DNA from: a virus
Taxonomy: Duplodnaviria; Heunggongvirae; Uroviricota; Caudoviricetes
Reading direction: 5' to 3' (one strand)
Length of the DNA: 30,042 bases
IMG/VR virus record: IMGVR_UViG_2711768048_000007
Shown piece after piece: positions 511 to 30,042 of the stretch. The notes under the pieces are model-generated. The model had not been told where the DNA came from, did no database searches, and saw nothing but the letters and a program-made list of their open reading frames with translations. Both the position numbers and the translations under genes were made by a program. How positions within the stretch are numbered: position 1 is the stretch's first letter; each line of letters begins with the position of its first letter.

Positions 511-1284
511 TTACAACTTAAAGAGTTTCGCTTGCCCTGGATTAACAGCTTCGACGTAGTTTTTGACCCCTATTCTGTGCGGCTCATAATTGCTTGAATA
601 GAAATCAATCAGGAAGTCACTCATTTTCTGAGATGTGACTTTCATAACTCCCTTACTCAAAGTTAAATTAAACACGCTAATCTTTGACGATGGTGCCTGA
701 GTTTTACTCATGTTGGCTTGATAACCAGATTTACGCATTGCCACTAGTGCTTCGTCGTAAGCCGCTTGTAATTGGGCCAAATCGTTTGACGAGATGATCA
801 CATCATCCATAAACACACTTAGCTTGAGATCATGATGTTTGTTCAATCGGCGTAGTAAGCTACCAAAATAACTTTTATCTAAGCAGAGGGTTGCAAGTAT
901 TGGAGATTGAACAAAACCAAAAGGGAGGACATGCTTATGTGGACTATGGGACAAGTTTCTTACAGTTGAAAATGTTGAGATTTCCCGCGCTTGAGAATAG
1001 GTGAAGTAGCTCTTTAGATCACGGGTGATACGACTACGGCTCGTTGACTGAAAAAATTGTTTAATATCAACAACGGCAAAAAAATCACTTTTTAAGTGTA
1101 ATCTGGCAGCTTTAAGATGCCCACCAGTTCTTAGATGGTAAAAATAGAGTGGCGGAATCCACTTGTTTCTGACAGCCTGAAGTATCTTCCCTCCGACTTT
1201 ACGTGCCTCAACGCTTGGGACATAAACCCAAACCCCGGGCTTAATCTCAAATTTATCTTCCCACCTTTGAACTTCTATTGTCAT
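511..1284 (-). CDS. compact reverse transcriptase (257 aa), family unassigned
   Basis: The translation carries RT palm motifs in the correct order: FFAVVDIKQFF (motif A with Asp), PFGFVQSPILATL (motif B-like) and SVFMDDVIIS (catalytic xxDD, FMDD variant). True ATG start, with a TAA two codons upstream in frame. Confidence 0.75.
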   Translation of the reverse strand: MTIEVQRWEDKFEIKPGVWVYVPSVEARKVGGKILQAVRNKWIPPLYFYHLRTGGHLKAARLHLKSDFFAVVDIKQFFQSTSRSRITRDLKSYFTYSQAREISTFSTVRNLSHSPHKHVLPFGFVQSPILATLCLDKSYFGSLLRRLNKHHDLKLSVFMDDVIISSNDLAQLQAAYDEALVAMRKSGYQANMSKTQAPSSKISVFNLTLSKGVMKVTSQKMSDFLIDFYSSNYEPHRIGVKNYVEAVNPGQAKLFKL

Positions 1285-15795: not shown

Positions 15796-16494
15796 TTATT
15801 TGTTTCTTCTTTGTTCACGCCTTGTCTTGGCTTCGATAAGGCGTTGAGGTTCAGTGTAAAGCCGTTCTAAAAAAAGATAGGTAAAATCTTCAAGATCCTC
15901 AGCAGCAGCTTTATCCAAAATACCTTCATGCGCTCCATCATTTCCGTCATCTTTAACGCATTCAGCTAGTTCCCTTAAAGCTTCAGGCAGTAGATGATTA
16001 TCAAATAACCACTCCATTCTTAACCCTAGGCTTCTCCTTATTTTTTGCGCAGGCCCTTGCTCCCCATCAGGAAGAAGTCCTTTTGTGGCATAATCAAGGC
16101 AAAGCCTAAACATGGTTGCTGCTGCATTATAACAACCTATAGCCAAACATTTCGCCCCTTCCTCATATGCACTATTGATATGCTCAGGTAAGAACTCTGG
16201 TGGCTCCTCTACTGCTAAGTCTGCCGGTGATATAGGCCTAACAACCTCTGCAACTTCCTTTAAGCCGAATATTCCACTTTCCCAATTATAGCCATCTAAA
16301 GTTTTATTTTTCGTTAAAGGTCTGCAAAGAAACATTGTCGTTTTATGACACTCTCGGCAAACACAATAGACCTCGTACTCGTATGTTTTACCCCCGCCCA
16401 ATGCATTGTAAACCCTAGTGCAATTCAGCCCATTAACATCAAACGCTATTTTTTGTGATCCACATCGTGGACAGTCATCCACTAACATAACCAT
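15796..16494 (-). CDS. hypothetical cargo protein: N-terminal zinc ribbon plus C-terminal helical domain
   Basis: 232 aa. Cys pattern CPRCG...C...CxCRECH; C-terminal motif KDDGNDGAHEG. Strong GGGAGGAG Shine-Dalgarno. Lower GC than the phage backbone. Lies between portal and cos, convergent with Q (8-bp gap). Confidence 0.65.
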   Translation of the reverse strand: MVMLVDDCPRCGSQKIAFDVNGLNCTRVYNALGGGKTYEYEVYCVCRECHKTTMFLCRPLTKNKTLDGYNWESGIFGLKEVAEVVRPISPADLAVEEPPEFLPEHINSAYEEGAKCLAIGCYNAAATMFRLCLDYATKGLLPDGEQGPAQKIRRSLGLRMEWLFDNHLLPEALRELAECVKDDGNDGAHEGILDKAAAEDLEDFTYLFLERLYTEPQRLIEAKTRREQRRNK

Positions 16495-16595: not shown

Positions 16596-16630
16596 GAGCG
16601 CGCGCTCGTATCCCCGCCACGCCTGCCCGC
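16596..16630. other. cos-like cohesive-end site
   Basis: The minus strand reads GGCGTGGCGGGGATACGAG, matching the first 13 nt of the 186 cohesive end GGCGTGGCGGGGA... as I recall it. A perfect 12-bp palindrome GAGCGCGCGCTC adjoins it (16596..16607). Confidence 0.5.
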
Positions 16631-16665
16631 TTTATGTAGTGGTTTTCATGCGTCTGCATGACATA

Positions 16666-16692
16666 AGCAAAAGCCCGCCATTCCTAGCGGGC
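16666..16692 (-). terminator. rho-independent terminator downstream of the 203-aa gene
   Basis: Minus strand: GCCCGC-TAGGAATG-GCGGGC followed by TTTTG. Confidence 0.5.
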
Positions 16693-16783
16693 CTCAGCTA
16701 AAACGATCCTCAAACGATCATGCGGATTCATGCGGCATAGACATGCACAATCGCCAAAGCGGGCATCGAGACTTTTTGGAAAA

Positions 16784-17395
16784 CTACGTAACCACAGTTA
16801 ATGTGTGCATCCTGTCTCGAATTGCATCACACGTCTCATCAAAAAGCTTGGTGATGGTTGTACGATTCAACTCTGCCTCTTTCCAATAATTTTGCCAGTC
16901 AAATTCTGGATCGCCATGCTGAAACGATATTGACTCTGAAAAGCATTCCTTCCGGAAACGGTCCAAGATTATATAAACCTCTGGTGAGATGAACGGTTTG
17001 TTAGACTCAACACTTGTAACAAAAGTATTAAATGCATCGAAAAAAACTTTCAACCTTCTAAATTTTCTCTCTTCAAATGGTTCGTTGGGGTCAAAATGAT
17101 CCAGCGCAGGCCTCAGCTTAAGCACGCTTTCTCTGGTTTCAAACATCGAATTCCAAATGAGACTATATGCTGATAACTCCTTATCAAAATACGCTTTCGT
17201 TACATAAACAGAATTGTCTAACTTAGCCTTTATTCTTTCATTAGTTGCACTCAGTTGTGATTGAAATTCAGCAATATCTTTGTTTAGCCGCGACTTATAT
17301 CTTTCTAAATAAACTTTCCCGATCCAAACAAATATGCCAGATGCAACAAAAGACACCCCACCCAACGAAGCCAGAATTTTAAAGACTAAATCCAT
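16784..17395 (-). CDS. hypothetical cargo protein with an N-terminal transmembrane anchor
   Basis: 203 aa. Hydrophobic helix ILASLGGVSFVASGIFVWIG at the N-terminus, then a soluble domain. Own promoter-like elements (TTGATT, 15 bp, TATAAT at about 17425..17455), a Shine-Dalgarno, and a terminator. AT-rich. Confidence 0.65.
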   Translation of the reverse strand: MDLVFKILASLGGVSFVASGIFVWIGKVYLERYKSRLNKDIAEFQSQLSATNERIKAKLDNSVYVTKAYFDKELSAYSLIWNSMFETRESVLKLRPALDHFDPNEPFEERKFRRLKVFFDAFNTFVTSVESNKPFISPEVYIILDRFRKECFSESISFQHGDPEFDWQNYWKEAELNRTTITKLFDETCDAIRDRMHTLTVVT

Positions 17396-17443
17396 TGCGC
17401 CCCCACCTGCAAAAATAGTATTCCATTATAAGCTAATACATTT

Positions 17444-17704
17444 TTAATCAAACAGGGAATAATTCGCGTCAACCTCATCACTTCTCTGCTCTACCCTGGT
17501 GACTTCCATCAAAAACTCCAGGCCGTCATATAGCGAAACGGGGAATTCCAGCTCAAGCCAGAAGCAGTCTTCATAGGTGCGGCCCAACCAAAAACCTCCG
17601 CCACACTCCTTTGGGCGTTGAAAGAAGACCCAGCCGCCAGGGGTAAACCGTTCCAGCACCTGGCCCCGATAAATAATCTGGTGATTACTGTCTTTTTTAC
17701 CCAT
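17444..17704 (-). CDS. hypothetical protein, last gene of the SOS-controlled operon
   Basis: About 86 aa from the ATG with a GAGGCG Shine-Dalgarno (MGKKDSNHQ...); the longest ORF uses TTG at 17755. Confidence 0.45.
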   Translation of the reverse strand: MGKKDSNHQIIYRGQVLERFTPGGWVFFQRPKECGGGFWLGRTYEDCFWLELEFPVSLYDGLEFLMEVTRVEQRSDEVDANYSLFD

Positions 17705-17777: not shown

Positions 17778-18011
17778 TTAGTGCAGCCAGCTGTCGTCTT
17801 CCCAAACCTGCTGCATAATTTCCATCACCCGCTTTTTGTCTTCATCAAGCTTTAAGCCACTCAGCTCAACGCCGTTTGCCGACCCTTTACGGATGCGGAT
17901 AGCTGTCTTGGGATAGATGGGTTGCAGGTTGCGGTAAAGCTCGGACTCCAGAGCGTCCAGGGTAGACTGGCTAATCTTCTGCTCTTTATCGATCATTATT
18001 TCAATGCGCAT
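17778..18011 (-). CDS. dinI: DinI-family protein
   Basis: MRIEIMIDKEQKISQSTLDALESELYRNLQPIYP...VWEDDSWLH resembles E. coli DinI (MRIEVTIAK...ALAGELSRRIQ...TWESADDW). GAGGTGA Shine-Dalgarno. Confidence 0.7.
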   Translation of the reverse strand: MRIEIMIDKEQKISQSTLDALESELYRNLQPIYPKTAIRIRKGSANGVELSGLKLDEDKKRVMEIMQQVWEDDSWLH

Positions 18012-18021
18012 AAAAGTCACC

Positions 18022-18210
18022 TCAGCTGATGACATCCATTGAGCGGTTGTATTCGTGGCTTCTGATTTTTGCCATGAGTTCATCAGTCAATTCAGAAACC
18101 CACTGCAGAGCCAGCCCCTTCTCTTCATCACTACACTCACTAGCCGCTACAAGCTTAAGAAAAAAATCAATGCGCTGGAGCTTCAAAGACTCCAAAAAAT
18201 AGTCCTGCAT
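18022..18210 (-). CDS. small hypothetical protein, first gene after the LexA-box promoter (possible Tum-like antirepressor)
   Basis: 62 aa from the ATG with an AGGAGG Shine-Dalgarno (MQDYFLESLK...). Its stop overlaps the dinI-like Shine-Dalgarno. Confidence 0.5.
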   Translation of the reverse strand: MQDYFLESLKLQRIDFFLKLVAASECSDEEKGLALQWVSELTDELMAKIRSHEYNRSMDVIS

Positions 18211-18238
18211 CTTTCCTCCTATGACACCACAAGCAATA

Positions 18239-18271
18239 CTGTATACATAAACACTGTTTATATTTACAGTA
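18239..18271 (-). promoter_or_regulatory. LexA (SOS) operator(s) overlapping a promoter
   Basis: aCTGTttatatttACAGta at 18253..18271 is a perfect CTGT-N8-ACAG box. An overlapping imperfect box CTGTatacataaACAC lies at 18239..18254. Both are 30-60 bp upstream of the 18210 start codon. Confidence 0.7.
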
Positions 18272-18363
18272 TATAATAATCCTACTGATGTAAAACGTTT
18301 TTTTACGTTCATCAGCCTGATATGCCTGGTATTATTAAGAGCACGAATTGTTAACCCGCGTAA

Positions 18364-24460: not shown

Positions 24461-25477
24461 ATGACCATAAGAAAACAGCCGAACGGAAAATGGTTGTGTG
24501 AGTGCTATCCCAATGGACGCAATGGTAAGCGCGTGCGTAAGCAATTTGCTACCAAAGGCGAAGCCATTGCTTTTGAAAGCTTCACAATGGAAGAAGTGAA
24601 TAAAAAACCGTGGTTGGGTGAAAAGGATGATCGGCGACGCCTATCAGAATTAATTGAGCTTTGGTATTCCCTGTATGGTCAGACACTCGCAGACCCCAAG
24701 CGCCTCATGGCGAAACTTAGAATTATCTGTAATGGTCTAGGCGACCCCATCGCCTCAGAACTGACAGCCGGTGACTTTACGAAATACCGCGAAGCACGGT
24801 TAAAAGGTGACGTTCGTAACGAAGACGGCACACTAATGTCGCCAGTAAAACCACGCACGGTGAATCTTGAGCAACGTAACCTATCATCGGTTTTCGGCAC
24901 ATTGAAAAAACTAGGCCACTGGTCAGCACCAAATCCTCTCGCCGGGCTGCCAACATTTAAAATCGCTGAGGGGGAACTGGCGTTCCTGACCTCGGAAGAA
25001 ATTAAACGTCTGCTAGATGCCTGCGCTGATTCTCAAAACCCCAGTCTGCTTTTGATTGCAAAAATATGCCTGGCCACCGGCGCACGCTGGAGTGAAGCCG
25101 AAAACCTGCAGGGCCATCAGTTATCTAAATACCGCATCACTTATACCAAGACGAAGGGTAAGAAAAACCGCACCGTGCCGATATCTCAAGATCTGTATGA
25201 CGAACTCCCCAAGAACAGAGGGAAGCTATTCACCCCGTGCAGAAAAGCCTTTGAACGAGCAGTAAAGCGAGCTGGCATCGAGCTGCCAGAGGGCCAATGC
25301 ACTCACGTGCTACGTCATACATTCGCCAGCCATTTTATGATGAATGGCGGAAACATACTGGTTCTGCGCGATATTCTGGGCCATGCCGATATAAAAATGA
25401 CGATGATCTATTCTCATTTTTCACCAGAACACTTAGAAGATGCAGTAACTAAGAATCCTTTAAATTATATTGAGTGA
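24461..25477 (+). CDS. int: tyrosine integrase (P2 Int family)
   Basis: 338 aa; C-terminal catalytic region HVLRHTFASHFMMNGGNILVLRDILGHADIKMTMIYSHF with the catalytic Tyr. Lies next to attR. Confidence 0.9.
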   Translation: MTIRKQPNGKWLCECYPNGRNGKRVRKQFATKGEAIAFESFTMEEVNKKPWLGEKDDRRRLSELIELWYSLYGQTLADPKRLMAKLRIICNGLGDPIASELTAGDFTKYREARLKGDVRNEDGTLMSPVKPRTVNLEQRNLSSVFGTLKKLGHWSAPNPLAGLPTFKIAEGELAFLTSEEIKRLLDACADSQNPSLLLIAKICLATGARWSEAENLQGHQLSKYRITYTKTKGKKNRTVPISQDLYDELPKNRGKLFTPCRKAFERAVKRAGIELPEGQCTHVLRHTFASHFMMNGGNILVLRDILGHADIKMTMIYSHFSPEHLEDAVTKNPLNYIE

Positions 25478-25482
25478 AAATC

Positions 25483-26544
25483 ATGTTAAGTGATACTTGT
25501 TATACAGTGATTTATATTGCAGCAATCGTTTTATTAGTATTTATTACAATAGTAAAAAAATGGTACATGCTTGATAAAAGAAATTTATTTCGTCAGAAAT
25601 TATTTTGGATTTCAGTTTTAACACCTTTATTTTCCTTTATCTATTTTGGTTTTTTCACATGGTGGGGAAAAGAACCAGTACTCTCCGCACATGGCTATTC
25701 AAGATTTTACGAAATAAGCAAATTCCCTCTACTATTGCTAGCTAGTGCAGTTCCTTTGGCTTCGATCGTCAACAATATACATCGCACTATACAAACCGAA
25801 GCTCAGATCAACACCGCTGAAACGAAAAATGCAGTCGATAGATATTTAGCACATGAGAAAAACTTTATTGAGAAAACAAAGGAAATATTCGCCTACAATC
25901 TTCAAAGCGCGAGAGACTCAGATGGAAACCTCATTAAATTCAATGGCGAACCAAATATCACTTTGTTTACAGCAGATGAAATTAAAATTTCCAACCCATA
26001 TCTTTTATATACAAAAATATACAACAAATCAACTATAGAGACCACATCTAACTTCACCGCAAACCCTGATTTTTTAGTGCAATTAAAGGAGTACTTAAAC
26101 ACAATTAATAATACTCTGTCGGTTCAACACTCTATAGATGAATATAATCCATTAAGTTACATGATTCGACTTAACACTTTGTCATATAATACAGCCTCGT
26201 TATTAGACCTGATATGTACATCCCCCATATCTCATGTATACTGTTTGATAAAATATGATGGGTATCAATTAAAAACATTTACACTTGAAGAACAAGTATT
26301 CGCCGATATTTTAGAAATATCATATCTTCTATCAAGAAAACTAATTCGTTTGATATATAATGAAGATATACCACATTACGACAACATTTATAATTACTTA
26401 TATGTTGGTAAGTTGAGGTTTAAATTCAGAAAACACGCCAATTCTTTACAAGCATTTTCTTCGCAGGAATGGGCTGATTACGTTTCTGAAGCACTAACTC
26501 TAGTTCCTAACGAAGTTGGCGGCACTTTGGCGGCAGCGCATTAA
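25483..26544 (+). CDS. hypothetical polytopic membrane protein, very AT-rich cargo
   Basis: Three predicted helices (YTVIYIAAIVLLVFITIV, WISVLTPLFSFIYFGFFTWW, LLLLASAVPLASIVNNI) then an Asn/Tyr/Ile-rich domain of about 250 aa. GC content estimated by eye at about 30 percent, against roughly 50 percent for the backbone. Overlaps the int stop; a GTG at 25474 is an alternative start. Confidence 0.65.
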   Translation: MLSDTCYTVIYIAAIVLLVFITIVKKWYMLDKRNLFRQKLFWISVLTPLFSFIYFGFFTWWGKEPVLSAHGYSRFYEISKFPLLLLASAVPLASIVNNIHRTIQTEAQINTAETKNAVDRYLAHEKNFIEKTKEIFAYNLQSARDSDGNLIKFNGEPNITLFTADEIKISNPYLLYTKIYNKSTIETTSNFTANPDFLVQLKEYLNTINNTLSVQHSIDEYNPLSYMIRLNTLSYNTASLLDLICTSPISHVYCLIKYDGYQLKTFTLEEQVFADILEISYLLSRKLIRLIYNEDIPHYDNIYNYLYVGKLRFKFRKHANSLQAFSSQEWADYVSEALTLVPNEVGGTLAAAH

Positions 26545-26833: not shown

Positions 26834-29749
26834 TCAGAACGACCAGTTCACACCAGCTACCGCGTTCCACGGGGATTCCACACCGGCACTATGGCTATAC
26901 CCCACCCCAAGATGCCCGCTTAACGTACTGCTGAATGAGGCTTTAATACCTGCCTGGTATATTCCACGTCTGCCCGACAAATAATTGACGAAATTACCGT
27001 CACTATTCACTTTCACCCGGTTATCATCGACAAATTCTTTGCGCACAGCCGCCTTCAGCCACGGCTCAACTTCCATACCGTTCCCCAGACGCATGTTGTA
27101 ACTCAGCGTTGCGCCCAGTTCACGATATATACTGCGGGTATCGACTGATTTCGATTTCATGCCATTGGATAAATGATATTCGGGGTTATCAGCGGTGAAC
27201 CCCGTTAACGATGCATACGGCGTCAGGTTCCAGTTACCATCGGTAAATCGCATCCCGGTTTCAATGTGACCGCCCAGCCCGTTGCTGTGGTAACTGCCAT
27301 TGGCGGCTCCACCGCTGCTCATTTTACCTGCTACGTTACTTTTAAAACGGTTCAGCTTCACGACACCGTCCAGATAGAAACCACTTTCATGTTCCCAACT
27401 GGCATAGCCGCCCAGAGAATAACTGCCCACACTGCCATGTCCTCCGCGATCAAAACCGATATGTGAATGGGAATAGCCCATAAAAGCGCCTAGCGTGGTA
27501 ATTCCTTCAGGAATATCATTACGGCTGTCGATCCCCACTGTCATTCCGGTCAGCGTCTGCTCAAACCCGGCACCCGCATCGGTGGTGACATTATTACGGG
27601 TGTTATACGTCGCCCCCCAGACATTATTGTTGTGTGGACTCGCTTTCATTATGTTCAACCGCTCGCGAATACTGTTTAGCTCAGCATCAAATACCAACGG
27701 TAATGTTGCTGCCATATTGAGTACGGCTGCCGTAGAAGGCGTAATGCGTTTCTCCGGAACGGGTGTCGGCGTTGGATCGGGAGTAGGGTCTGGTTTTGGA
27801 TTTGGGTCTGGCTTTGGATCGGGTTTTGGGTCTGGCTTTGGATTTGGGATGGGGTCCGGGTTGGGTTTGACATCATTGGTCAGGTTCCAGTTGCTGTTGC
27901 CGTCACTTTTCAGGACATACTCATAGGTCCCAAGATCAACGAAACCGCCGGTATTGCCCAGCGTAAACGAAGCATCCCCTCCCCCTGTTTTCACCAGCGT
28001 CATCGCGTCGTCAGACTGTGGGCTGACGCCGGTATCCTGAACAAAGATTTTAAAATTACCAGTGGCGTTGTTGTTGACGACCAGTTGATCGCCCCGGGAG
28101 CCTGCAACGTTGGTATGCAGGTAGAAATTACCGCTACCGGAAAGTTCATTGGTTGTCAGCGTATTGTAGATACCGTTAGTTGTGGCAGGCGCTGCTGTTT
28201 GTGCTGACAAATAAACATCACCGTCGTTGAGTAGCAAACTGTTTACTCTATATTCGCAGTTGCTGGTACCTGCACAGGAATTATTGCTGTTAAGCCAGAC
28301 ACTGCCCCGGCTGGCAGCCGTCAGGTCGGCAAGCGTGGTATCGACGCCATTTCCCAGAGTCAATGTCGCGCTATCGGTAATCCGGACCGCCCCTTCGAGT
28401 TTAACTGGCGTAACATTATCCCGTGGCGTCATTAACGACAGGCTTCCTGTCGCGCCACTGACCGATGCATCCGCCAGCGTACCTGCGTAGACGATTGCCG
28501 TACCGCCAGCGACCTGGAGATCTTCTGCCCGGGCCAGAGCCTGAAACTCATCTTTTGACCGCCCAAGGGTATATTGCCCGCCAGAGTTAACCTTTGTGGC
28601 GGAGTCCTGACCCAGGTTTTGCATTGCCCCACCCTTGCCAACCGTGGAGTCGCGAGCTTCGGTACCTGCTAATACCAATAAATTACCGCCATTTTCCAGC
28701 AACATATTGGTCGCTAAATTGCCGGAAATGGAAAAAGTACCGTACTGGTGAGTACCGCTGATTTCAATACCGTTAGCCGTGCTCGTCTGGAGAGCGGCAC
28801 CGCTGTTCTGGACGATATCTGTCGCTTTGCCATTATCGTTGACTGTCAGCGTACCGCCTTCATTGATCTTTGTTTTTATTGCCTCTCCGTTAGCTGAAAC
28901 TGTTTGTATTCCGCCGTCGTTAATTGTTGTCTCATTCGCCACACCCTCGACAATTTGTTCACCGCCGGTGAGCGTCGTGCCTGTCGCAGTGGCTTTTGTT
29001 TTGACGATCTCCCGTCCGCCCATATTGACCTGTGTTTTGTCAGAAGAGGTGTCTGACTCCACGGTTAACACGCCGCCATTTGCCAGCAGGATATTGTTCG
29101 CCGCACCCTGCTCGATGCTGAACGCGACGCCATCCGCGCGTGTTCCTGTGACCCGCGTCGCCCTGGTGGTTGCAACCAAAGCGCCCTGGCTACTCTGCTG
29201 TATCCCCGTTGCGCTGCCTTTCTCCCGCACATCGAGTGTGCCGCCGTCATTAAGCACCGAGTTTTCAGCCAGACCGCCCTCATTAACTACCTGTGAACCC
29301 CCATTAATAATGGAACCTTCCGCTGTCCCGTTTGCCATAATTTGTTGTAGGCCAGAGACGATATCGGTATTGATTGCCTTACCATAATTCTGAACGGTTT
29401 GCGTGCCACCATTGATGTGTGTTTTCTCTGTTGACCCACCATCAACAATTTGTTCACCACTTTCGATATTTGCTTCAGTGGCTAAACCATATACCGTTTG
29501 CTTGCCACCTTTGATATTTGCTTTATCAGAAGTGGCACTGGCATATATTGTTTGGGTGCCAGCACTATTGAGTACAGTGCCAACATCTTTTCCATAAACA
29601 TCCATTTTGCCGTTGGCATTAATAATCGTGTCAACTGCGCGGGAACCAGTGACGACTGTTAATGAGCCAGCGTTTTCCAGCACTACATTTTTAGCTTCTG
29701 AATTCCTGATGTAGAAAGCATCACCATAACTGTTGGTTCCTTCGATAAG
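26834..29749 (-). CDS. autotransporter adhesin (YpjA-like), N-terminal part cut off by IS2 (probable pseudogene fragment)
   Basis: Repetitive Gly/Thr/Asn-rich passenger region, Pro-rich PNPDPIPNPKPDPKPDP linker, C-terminal beta-barrel ending ...AGVNWSF. No signal peptide; the 5' end runs into the IS2 terminal repeat. Confidence 0.75.
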   Translation of the reverse strand, partial: LIEGTNSYGDAFYIRNSEAKNVVLENAGSLTVVTGSRAVDTIINANGKMDVYGKDVGTVLNSAGTQTIYASATSDKANIKGGKQTVYGLATEANIESGEQIVDGGSTEKTHINGGTQTVQNYGKAINTDIVSGLQQIMANGTAEGSIINGGSQVVNEGGLAENSVLNDGGTLDVREKGSATGIQQSSQGALVATTRATRVTGTRADGVAFSIEQGAANNILLANGGVLTVESDTSSDKTQVNMGGREIVKTKATATGTTLTGGEQIVEGVANETTINDGGIQTVSANGEAIKTKINEGGTLTVNDNGKATDIVQNSGAALQTSTANGIEISGTHQYGTFSISGNLATNMLLENGGNLLVLAGTEARDSTVGKGGAMQNLGQDSATKVNSGGQYTLGRSKDEFQALARAEDLQVAGGTAIVYAGTLADASVSGATGSLSLMTPRDNVTPVKLEGAVRITDSATLTLGNGVDTTLADLTAASRGSVWLNSNNSCAGTSNCEYRVNSLLLNDGDVYLSAQTAAPATTNGIYNTLTTNELSGSGNFYLHTNVAGSRGDQLVVNNNATGNFKIFVQDTGVSPQSDDAMTLVKTGGGDASFTLGNTGGFVDLGTYEYVLKSDGNSNWNLTNDVKPNPDPIPNPKPDPKPDPKPDPNPKPDPTPDPTPTPVPEKRITPSTAAVLNMAATLPLVFDAELNSIRERLNIMKASPHNNNVWGATYNTRNNVTTDAGAGFEQTLTGMTVGIDSRNDIPEGITTLGAFMGYSHSHIGFDRGGHGSVGSYSLGGYASWEHESGFYLDGVVKLNRFKSNVAGKMSSGGAANGSYHSNGLGGHIETGMRFTDGNWNLTPYASLTGFTADNPEYHLSNGMKSKSVDTRSIYRELGATLSYNMRLGNGMEVEPWLKAAVRKEFVDDNRVKVNSDGNFVNYLSGRRGIYQAGIKASFSSTLSGHLGVGYSHSAGVESPWNAVAGVNWSF
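27757..27870. repeat. tandem short-unit repeats encoding the Pro-rich autotransporter linker
   Basis: Reiterated GGKTYTGGNTTTGGR units (for example GGGTCTGGCTTTGGATCGGGTTTTGGGTCTGGCTTTGGATTTGGG). Confidence 0.6.
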
Positions 29750-30042
29750 TGGATTTGCCCCTATATTTCCAGACACCTGTTATCACTTAACCCATTACTG
29801 GCCTGCTGCCGCAGATATTCCCGTGGCGAGCGATAACCCAGTGCACTATGCGGATGCCATTCGTTATAATGCTCGAACGCCTCTGCAAGGTTCTTTGCTG
29901 CCGTTAACCCGTCTGGTTTAGGCATGATACTGATGTAGTCACGCTTTATCGTTTTCACGAAGCTCTCTGCTATGCCGTTACTCTCCGGACTCCGCACCGC
30001 CGTGTTCTTCGGTTCAAGCCCCAACATCCGGGCAAACTGCCG
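29750..30042 (-). mobile_element. IS2 (IS3 family), right end, partial at the window edge
   Basis: Terminal sequence TGGATTTGCCCCTATATTTCCAGACACCTGTTATCACTTAA matches the IS2 right inverted repeat as I recall it, and the adjacent ORF is the InsD C-terminus. Confidence 0.8.
29761..30042 (-). CDS. insD: IS2 transposase InsD (OrfB), C-terminal part; continues beyond the window
   Basis: ...[36 protein letters not shown]...[32 protein letters not shown]. Confidence 0.8.

Follow-up and report, generated by a model that had tools for sequence, protein, structure and literature searches.

IMG/VR virus record IMGVR_UViG_2711768048_000007, a stretch of 30,042 nucleotides (nt) that we refer to as the window, contains a P2-like prophage in which an open reading frame (ORF) of 203 amino acids (aa) lies close to the cohesive-end site (cos). 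This locus raises two questions: whether the ORF is an accessory gene with transcription of its own, and what its product, a putative membrane protein, would do for the phage or its host. A first-pass annotation, made from the letters of the DNA alone, had described it as a self-contained unit of cargo and had pointed to abortive infection as a function for which this layout is common. We conclude that the 203-aa gene is a moron, an autonomously transcribed accessory gene of a Cartapus/Elveevirus-type prophage, and our best guess, a tentative one, is that it acts against other phages.

The ORF occupies positions 16784-17395 on the minus strand and starts with ATG. Its product is identical to WP_053274844 of Escherichia coli C2 and 99.5% identical to LF82_789 (CARTA_47, YP_010664018), encoded by Cartapus, the Elveevirus (Peduoviridae) prophage of E. 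coli LF82; at the DNA level the gene is 100% identical to its counterpart in C2 and 99.7% identical to that in LF82, and the gene region as a whole is 100% and 99.8% identical, respectively. The ORF is a real gene. It is under purifying selection, with a ratio of non-synonymous to synonymous substitution rates (dN/dS) of 0.12-0.14 at dS 0.74-0.83 between the E. coli and Enterobacter orthologues, it is matched over its full length (positions 1-203 of 203, E 2.7e-143) by the profile of phrog_26391, and its LF82 orthologue is transcribed. At 38.2% GC, and 38% GC at third codon positions (GC3), it is AT-rich compared with the backbone, as had been claimed: the window averages 50.9% GC, and gpA has 53% GC and 57% GC3.

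We then asked what signals precede the gene. The promoter and Shine-Dalgarno sequence reported by the first-pass annotation are both there, on the minus strand. The sigma-70-like promoter (17425-17451) consists of a -35 element TTGATT (17446-17451), a 15-nt spacer and a -10 element TATAAT (17425-17430), and the Shine-Dalgarno sequence AGGTGG (17403-17408) stands 7 nt ahead of the ATG, with its AGGT core kept in the Enterobacter copies. The 15-nt spacer is suboptimal, and a consensus scanner that takes only spacers of 16-18 nt called neither the promoter nor the terminator of the gene. Neither promoter hexamer varies among E. coli, LF82, three Enterobacter prophages and a decayed prophage remnant. 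Both fall within a block of 53 nt (17424-17476, minus strand) in which alignment of the E. coli and Enterobacter copies shows zero substitutions, against a divergence of about 0.8 per synonymous site in the same comparison; the block is identical in E. coli, LF82 and the three Enterobacter prophages and nearly so in the remnant, and is probably a promoter or regulatory region. It also holds a second -35-like element, TTGACG (17467-17472), and the final codons of an 86-aa ORF that lies immediately upstream. Since the 86-aa ORF has decayed in Enterobacter, coding constraint cannot account for the conservation of the block there.

Transcription data from the LF82 lysogen indicate that this promoter is used. 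Misson 2023 classed LF82_789 (2759532-2760143) as one of two morons of Cartapus, with expression 7-fold over the prophage background in LB culture. We took log2 values of fragments per kilobase per million (fpkm) from S1 Table of that study, which covers five conditions with two replicates each; from the caption, conditions 2 and 3 (B1, B6) are taken as Dulbecco's modified Eagle medium and MB1/MB6 as macrophage samples, with the exact time labels inferred. LF82_789 rose from 5.4/5.6 in LB to 7.1/7.3 in condition 2, 8.6/8.5 in condition 3, 9.0/9.0 in the earlier macrophage sample and 10.5/10.5 in the later one. The corresponding values for LF82_790, the upstream 86-aa ORF, were 3.3/3.1, 3.3/3.6, 2.8/2.6, 4.9/5.2 and 7.5/7.7, and gpA stayed at background in all five conditions. 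The LF82_789 transcript is thus 5- to 60-fold over that of the gene immediately upstream, which requires a promoter within the 48-bp gap between them. The gene is therefore a separately transcribed accessory gene with a conserved promoter of its own, as the first-pass annotation had proposed, and it has the other marks of a moron: transcription in the lysogen apart from the lytic operons, a terminator (contributed by the backbone), atypical GC and variable presence.

The prophage in the window closely matches Cartapus, to which it is nearly identical. The position of the gene was established from the annotation of the matching prophage of strain C2, in which tail, lysis and capsid genes are followed by terminase, portal, a variable region, gpA, Dam, cII/cox/CI and the integrase. 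Within the variable region the order is portal, a DUF4145 gene, cos, a hairpin, the 203-aa gene, the 86-aa ORF, DinI, a 62-aa ORF and gpA. The cos homologue lies at 16605-16623 on the minus strand (GGCGTGGCGGGGATACGAG, compared with GGCGAGGCGGGGAAAGCAC for P2 cosR in NC_001895); it is the single match in the window, where none is expected by chance. This places cos between the 203-aa gene and the DUF4145 gene at 15796-16494, so that the two are set apart, and the location foreseen for the gene, across cos in the hotspot between cos and the replication genes, is borne out. The slot is the gpA-cos-gpQ hotspot of Rousset 2022 and of a 2026 Nucleic Acids Research (NAR) study, and it is where P2 carries old and tin. 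Transcription of the 203-aa gene runs toward cos, whereas that of P2 old-tin runs away from it.

The terminator turned out to belong to a different unit from the one proposed. An intrinsic-terminator-like hairpin with its tail is present at 16665-16692 on the minus strand: the stem-loop GCCCGC-TAGGAATG-GCGGGC, with an 8-nt loop, spans 16673-16692, is retained in the centroid RNA fold and is followed directly by TTTTGCTT. However, P2-like phages without the 203-aa gene also have the DNA from about 16598 to 16750, hairpin included, at about 90% conservation. We conclude that the GC-rich hairpin exists as described, but that it is part of the conserved cos flank and hence of the backbone, not of the cargo.

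The slot itself is variable. The conserved flanks (cos, DinI, gpA) are found in 1289 of 5426 complete E. coli genomes, and only 52 of these carry the 203-aa gene. Elsewhere the slot is empty, with cos joined straight to DinI (locus L012), or it is occupied by an HNH endonuclease beside the same DUF4145 gene (locus L013). Invariance of this position among related prophages, or kinship to a P2-family core gene, would have spoken against cargo; instead the gene is absent from most E. coli loci with the same flanks and is not a core gene. In E. coli the mobile cassette extends from about 16750 to 17700 and encloses both the 203-aa gene and the 86-aa ORF (17444-17704, minus strand; phrog_2100, WP_000516592; 49.8% GC), which is annotated in Cartapus, C2 and LF82. 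The 86-aa ORF is present in 41 of the 52 genomes, and the other 11 keep only its last codons. There are likewise 11 of the 52 in which the copy of the 203-aa gene is 90-95% identical. In the two of these that we examined (NZ_CP075632 and NZ_CP145620), the gene is frameshifted and has as neighbours the genes for DprA and a phosphoribosyltransferase, a pair validated as a defence system by Rousset 2022, in a decayed P2 remnant that adjoins an integrase fragment.

P2-like prophages of Enterobacter carry an 83%-identical orthologue in the same place, and in them the 86-aa ORF has decayed to a pseudogene, from which it follows that the 86-aa ORF is dispensable; in LF82 it is only weakly expressed. 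The amino-acid sequence of the 203-aa protein is 100% conserved across Enterobacter prophages that differ in their other cargo, and the cargo on the far side of cos varies among a reverse transcriptase with STM3845, an OLD-like protein, AAA_21 with RloB, a Schlafen-like ATPase and an unknown 223-aa protein. Since the same gene is kept while its companion decays and the cargo across cos changes, it behaves as an independent one-gene module.

We next considered the architecture of the protein. On the Kyte-Doolittle scale the highest-scoring stretch of 19 residues (2.02) begins at residue 7, and residues 7-27 (codons at about 17315-17377, minus strand) form the sole hydrophobic helix. This transmembrane (TM) segment carries the motif LGGxSxxxSG and the interface motif W-I-G-K-V-Y, both conserved across the family. 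Lysine and arginine are commoner in the 15 residues after the helix than in those before it in 152 of 158 relatives (mean 3.3 versus 0.5). The topology prediction that the first-pass annotation had called for therefore yields, from this bias, a single N-terminal TM helix in an N-out, C-in orientation, which would put the remainder of the protein in the cytoplasm. An AlphaFold model built on a 128-sequence alignment has a mean predicted local distance difference test score (pLDDT) of 92.4 and contains helices at residues 14-92, 107-131, 138-160 and 167-200. In the model, the first of these runs through the TM segment and a free stalk (residues 28-62) and goes on to form helix one of an up-down four-helix bundle (residues 63-200). 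Hydropathy and the predicted structure thus agree with the earlier description, in which a soluble domain of about 170 aa follows a single N-terminal TM helix. We consider it predicted with good support that the protein crosses the inner membrane once, holds its four-helix bundle in the cytoplasm and has no catalytic fold.

Two features of the model suggest where function may reside. The stalk has a family-wide hydrophobic periodicity of 3.5-3.6 residues, with a seam (V28, Y33, L37, I41, F44, L48, I55, L59 and V63) that is exposed in the monomer model and may be a sign of self-association or of binding to a partner. In the family, E73 and P134 are invariant, and W81, L94, R95, P96, F135, E154, I192, R193 and R195 are at least 90% conserved. 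Placed in the bundle by helix directions rather than by coordinates, E73, P134, F135, R193 and R195 would lie at its membrane-proximal end, and R95 and E154 at its distal end.

To which family the protein belongs was less easily answered. Profile searches of Pfam, NCBIfam and PADLOC led to no named family, in keeping with the failure of the first-pass annotation to recognise one, and phrog_26391, which does match, is a PHROGs family of unknown function. Pfam and NCBIfam gave nothing above threshold for the protein itself except coiled-coil noise (for example PF10458, E 0.009), and Pfam gave no consistent match among 33 diverse family members. A PDB sequence search with three profiles returned nothing significant, and fold searches returned generic four-helix bundles only. 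A word-indexed search found enterobacterial relatives only; an exhaustive profile search retrieved 921 clusters at 50% identity with E<=1e-3, 388 of them with E<=1e-10. Nearly all of the best 150 of the 921 clusters are 190-240 aa long and match most of the profile. As judged from these matches, the 203-aa protein is a member of a large, unnamed and uncharacterised family.

Several candidate identities were rejected. The label "valyl-tRNA synthetase" in some E. coli RefSeq records is a mis-annotation that stems from the sub-threshold PF10458 coiled-coil match, and DUF4760, the UniRef name of one relative, has no Pfam support for that relative and led to no useful literature. Comparison by hhalign gave probabilities of 0.2% for kinship to the neighbouring DUF4145 (HEPN) protein, 0.4% for P2 Tin and 0.3% for HP1 orf1. 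As for the HEPN motif Rx4-6H, conservation extends to R193 and R195 but not to H197, and only 1 or 3 residues would intervene. An OLD-family nuclease would have ABC-type ATPase and TOPRIM domains, and this all-helical protein of 203 aa has neither. A sensor of the 4HB_MCP type has a similar fold, but the 203-aa protein has a single TM helix, a bundle predicted to face the cytoplasm, and no match in Pfam.

A genome scan keyed on the juxtamembrane N-terminal motif, and hence biased toward it, identified 80 loci in many phyla. The family profile matches about 16 of these from end to end, 7 as far as about position 165 and about 50 in the TM segment and stalk only. In an all-against-all BLAST comparison of 74 of the proteins, every pair matched at the N-terminus, and the C-termini fell into classes of 21, 18, 16, 10 and 3, plus singletons. 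At 50% or more N-terminal identity there were 683 pairs, and 468 of them lacked detectable C-terminal similarity. The N-terminal conservation among the 74 is partly built in by the motif-based sampling, whereas the C-terminal heterogeneity is not. An N-terminal module (...LGGxxxxxxLSSWLGKVWAxRIL...) thus occurs in proteins that are about 200 aa long and fall, by their C-termini, into at least five unrelated classes; no Pfam domain was found in any of the N-terminal-module relatives searched. The TM-plus-stalk module is thus found joined to no fewer than four or five C-terminal domains that are unrelated to one another.

We examined the genomic contexts of the relatives. Relatives at 49% and 37% identity stand directly after int-alpA in satellite-like elements. 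These elements (L005, 6472-12633, and L017, 6457-12422), each with an integrase, an AlpA-like gene and a primase/helicase, sit within the capsid or large-terminase gene of a prophage. Another relative, 29% identical, follows the tail-fibre genes at the end of a lambda-like prophage. Clostridium phage Maintenon has a relative between its terminase genes and Pseudomonas phage Riah one close to its CI repressor, and a further case comes from a prophage-like region of Chloroflexi. We also looked at 16 more distant loci. In one, a full-length member lies inside an island of DUF4391, type III methylase and Res genes; in another, a partial member overlaps a PDC-S51 candidate that adjoins a serine recombinase; in a third (L088), a serine recombinase and GajA-GajB (Gabija) flank a relative that shares the N-terminal module without being a full family member. 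The 146 neighbour genes at these 16 loci also include matches to Type I restriction endonuclease, PDC-S04, PDC-M34A and HKD-Snf2.

An anti-phage role, by superinfection exclusion or abortive infection, is the function that we favour, with less than firm confidence, on the grounds of position, expression and architecture; the slot is a known P2 defence hotspot, it is variable, and in Enterobacter the gene remains constant while the cargo across cos changes. In the lysogen the sigma-70-type promoter drives transcription toward cos, which probably stops at the backbone hairpin, and the protein is predicted to insert in the inner membrane by its one N-terminal helix, followed by the stalk (28-62) and then the cytoplasmic bundle (63-200). 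If the anti-phage reading is correct, the protein would oligomerise through the Gly/Ser-rich TM helix and the hydrophobic stalk seam. The bundle would be a binding or sensing module rather than an enzyme and would recognise a component of the incoming phage. Recognition could block DNA entry or early development at the membrane, which would be superinfection exclusion; alternatively, it could switch the membrane module to a leaky state, so that infection is aborted. The membrane and stalk module would then be a constant effector, and the C-terminal bundle an exchangeable specificity part. A broader proposal is that the family represents a large superfamily of single-protein membrane immune sensors in which a constant TM/stalk effector is joined to interchangeable phage-recognition domains, namely the four or five or more unrelated helical domains in the cytoplasm; we regard this as possible but rather doubtful. 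In the same proposal this superfamily, with the motif ...LGGxxxxxxLSxW-L/I-G-K-V-W/Y..., would extend over many bacterial phyla and travel on P2-like prophages, satellites and recombinase-borne islands.

A number of observations weigh against an anti-phage role. PADLOC-DB 2.0 has no match to the 203-aa protein at E<=1. Rousset 2022 listed the gene as "hypothetical", outside the systems tested, and reported that the hotspot also holds non-defence cargo, for example partition systems and a cytolethal distending toxin. The family is rare in phage isolates (4 of 50,697 phages) and in plasmids (1 record), and the subfamily motif is rare in IMG/VR (6 contigs). The first-pass annotation had suggested checking whether homologues occur in defence islands, and here the outcome was mixed: some do lie beside restriction-modification genes or defence candidates, but many of the distant relatives have housekeeping neighbours, the count of defence neighbours has no background control, and the scan that supplied the distant loci was biased by its motif. 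Oligomerisation, topology and any phage phenotype are predictions. Lastly, strong induction in macrophages could point to host adaptation instead.

This last point bears on the most substantial rival explanation, that the gene is a lysogenic-conversion factor, induced under host-associated stress, that improves envelope function or survival of the bacterium, for example in macrophages. LF82 is an adherent-invasive strain that survives in macrophages (Misson 2023), and LF82_789 increases from log2 5.5 in LB through 8.6 to 10.5 in macrophages, about 32-fold, where it is among the most strongly expressed Cartapus genes. The AT-richness of the gene resembles that of many xenogeneically silenced, condition-induced genes, and no PADLOC defence model matches. 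However, the DUF4145 gene, DinI and the 62-aa ORF go up alongside LF82_789, and the LB sample was an overnight culture, so the rise may be a regional or growth-state effect. Moreover, members of the family turn up in many phyla of environmental bacteria that are unconnected with animal hosts, and no host-fitness phenotype has been reported; a preprint on a CRISPR interference (CRISPRi) gut screen mentions only the Cartapus repressor and nothing on the 203-aa gene. We consider a benefit to the host unlikely.

A role in the phage's own cycle or in counter-defence, such as lysis, DNA injection or packaging at the membrane, or inhibition of a host defence, would fit the position of the gene, which adjoins cos and is co-oriented with the early/replication operon. 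Its neighbour DinI is a modulator of host responses, and in Clostridium phage Maintenon the relative sits between the terminase genes. Absence from about 96% of the E. coli P2-like loci with the same flanks nevertheless means that growth does not depend on the gene. The repressed lysogen expresses it while gpA is at background, and Enterobacter prophages with differing cargo keep it intact. Such a role is accordingly improbable. Another idea, that the 203-aa gene and the 86-aa ORF form a two-gene addiction module of toxin and antitoxin, draws on the fact that DNA queries for both ORFs match 52 E. coli genomes and that the cassette boundaries enclose both. In Enterobacter, though, the 86-aa ORF has decayed beside a 203-aa gene that is intact and under purifying selection, the expression levels of the two in LF82 are very different, their GC contents are 49.8% and 38.2%, and distant relatives lack a partner of the 86-aa type. 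A toxin-antitoxin module is largely excluded.

Several other genes in the window deserve mention. On the portal side of cos, the 232-aa DUF4145 protein (15796-16494, minus strand) matches phrog_1305 and, weakly, the PADLOC model PD-T7-4 (E 1.2e-6). In LF82 the lysogen also expresses its orthologue, LF82_788, which is about 29-fold up in the macrophage samples. The DUF4145 gene is separable from the 203-aa gene, since the same gene adjoins the HNH endonuclease in locus L013. DinI and the 62-aa ORF, downstream of gpA (17778-18312, minus strand), are about 80- to 100-fold up in the LF82 macrophage samples with gpA at background, which indicates a separate promoter between gpA and DinI, probably SOS-responsive. 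Just past the late (tail) genes, a 257-aa ORF (511-1284, minus strand) has a reverse-transcriptase domain (RVT_1, E 2e-21) and may be a retron or a defence-type reverse transcriptase. A 356-aa ORF without a Pfam match (25474-26544, plus strand) overlaps the integrase stop codon, in the integrase-att slot that the 2026 NAR study described as a minor P2 defence hotspot. A 980-aa gene for an AIDA/pertactin/autotransporter adhesin (26834-29776, minus strand) is probably chromosomal, just beyond the prophage.

P2-like prophages are a main vehicle for anti-phage genes in enterobacteria, and much of the cargo in their hotspots is unexplained. The 203-aa gene is a convenient test case, being a single gene with its own promoter and a confident structural model, expressed in a clinically studied lysogen, the adherent-invasive E. 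coli strain LF82; E73, R95, P134, E154 and R195 provide a short list of invariant residues for mutagenesis. If phage exclusion is confirmed, a family of hundreds of clusters without a Pfam entry would acquire a function, and the combination of a constant membrane module with a swappable sensor would be useful for finding further defence genes. If a benefit in macrophages is confirmed instead, the gene would be a new prophage-encoded fitness factor of a strain associated with Crohn's disease.

How, then, does the gene compare with what is already known? The exact arrangement "hypothetical + DinI + hypothetical + hypothetical + DUF4145", with the protein accession, is in Table S5A of Rousset 2022, and a literature search by accession found only the LF82 paper (Misson 2023), with no function assigned to the gene. 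The gene is thus already in databases and papers, and is ordinary hotspot cargo of a P2-like prophage with a surprisingly large uncharacterised family behind it. It shares with P2 old and tin the slot between gene A and cos, and like them it is non-essential, expressed from the prophage and variable among related phages. There is no sequence relation, however; the 203-aa protein is membrane-anchored and its gene is transcribed toward cos, whereas the old-tin mRNA starts near cos. HP1 orf1 (205 aa), which lies downstream of cI and next to int in the P2-like Haemophilus phage HP1, is similar in size, membrane-associated and in a moron-type position. It is the second-best structural match in BFVD (probability 0.99, E 0.024) and, with no sequence relation, an analogue at most.

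More remote likenesses concern architecture. Chemoreceptor and histidine-kinase sensors (Tar/Tsr, 4k0d) and FAT domains likewise present an up-down four-helix bundle, in the sensors on a membrane helix, and these bundles are scaffolds for binding ligands or peptides. The bundles of Tar/Tsr-type sensors, however, are periplasmic and lie between two TM helices; the 203-aa protein has one helix, and identity is 8-12%. Single-gene membrane exclusion and abortive-infection proteins, and Csx28, the accessory pore of Cas13b, resemble the 203-aa protein, as predicted, in an N-terminal TM helix, an all-helical cytoplasmic domain, small size and carriage on mobile elements. For the 203-aa protein neither a conserved HEPN-type motif nor a CRISPR association nor a PADLOC match was seen; the likeness is one of architecture, with no evidence of homology.

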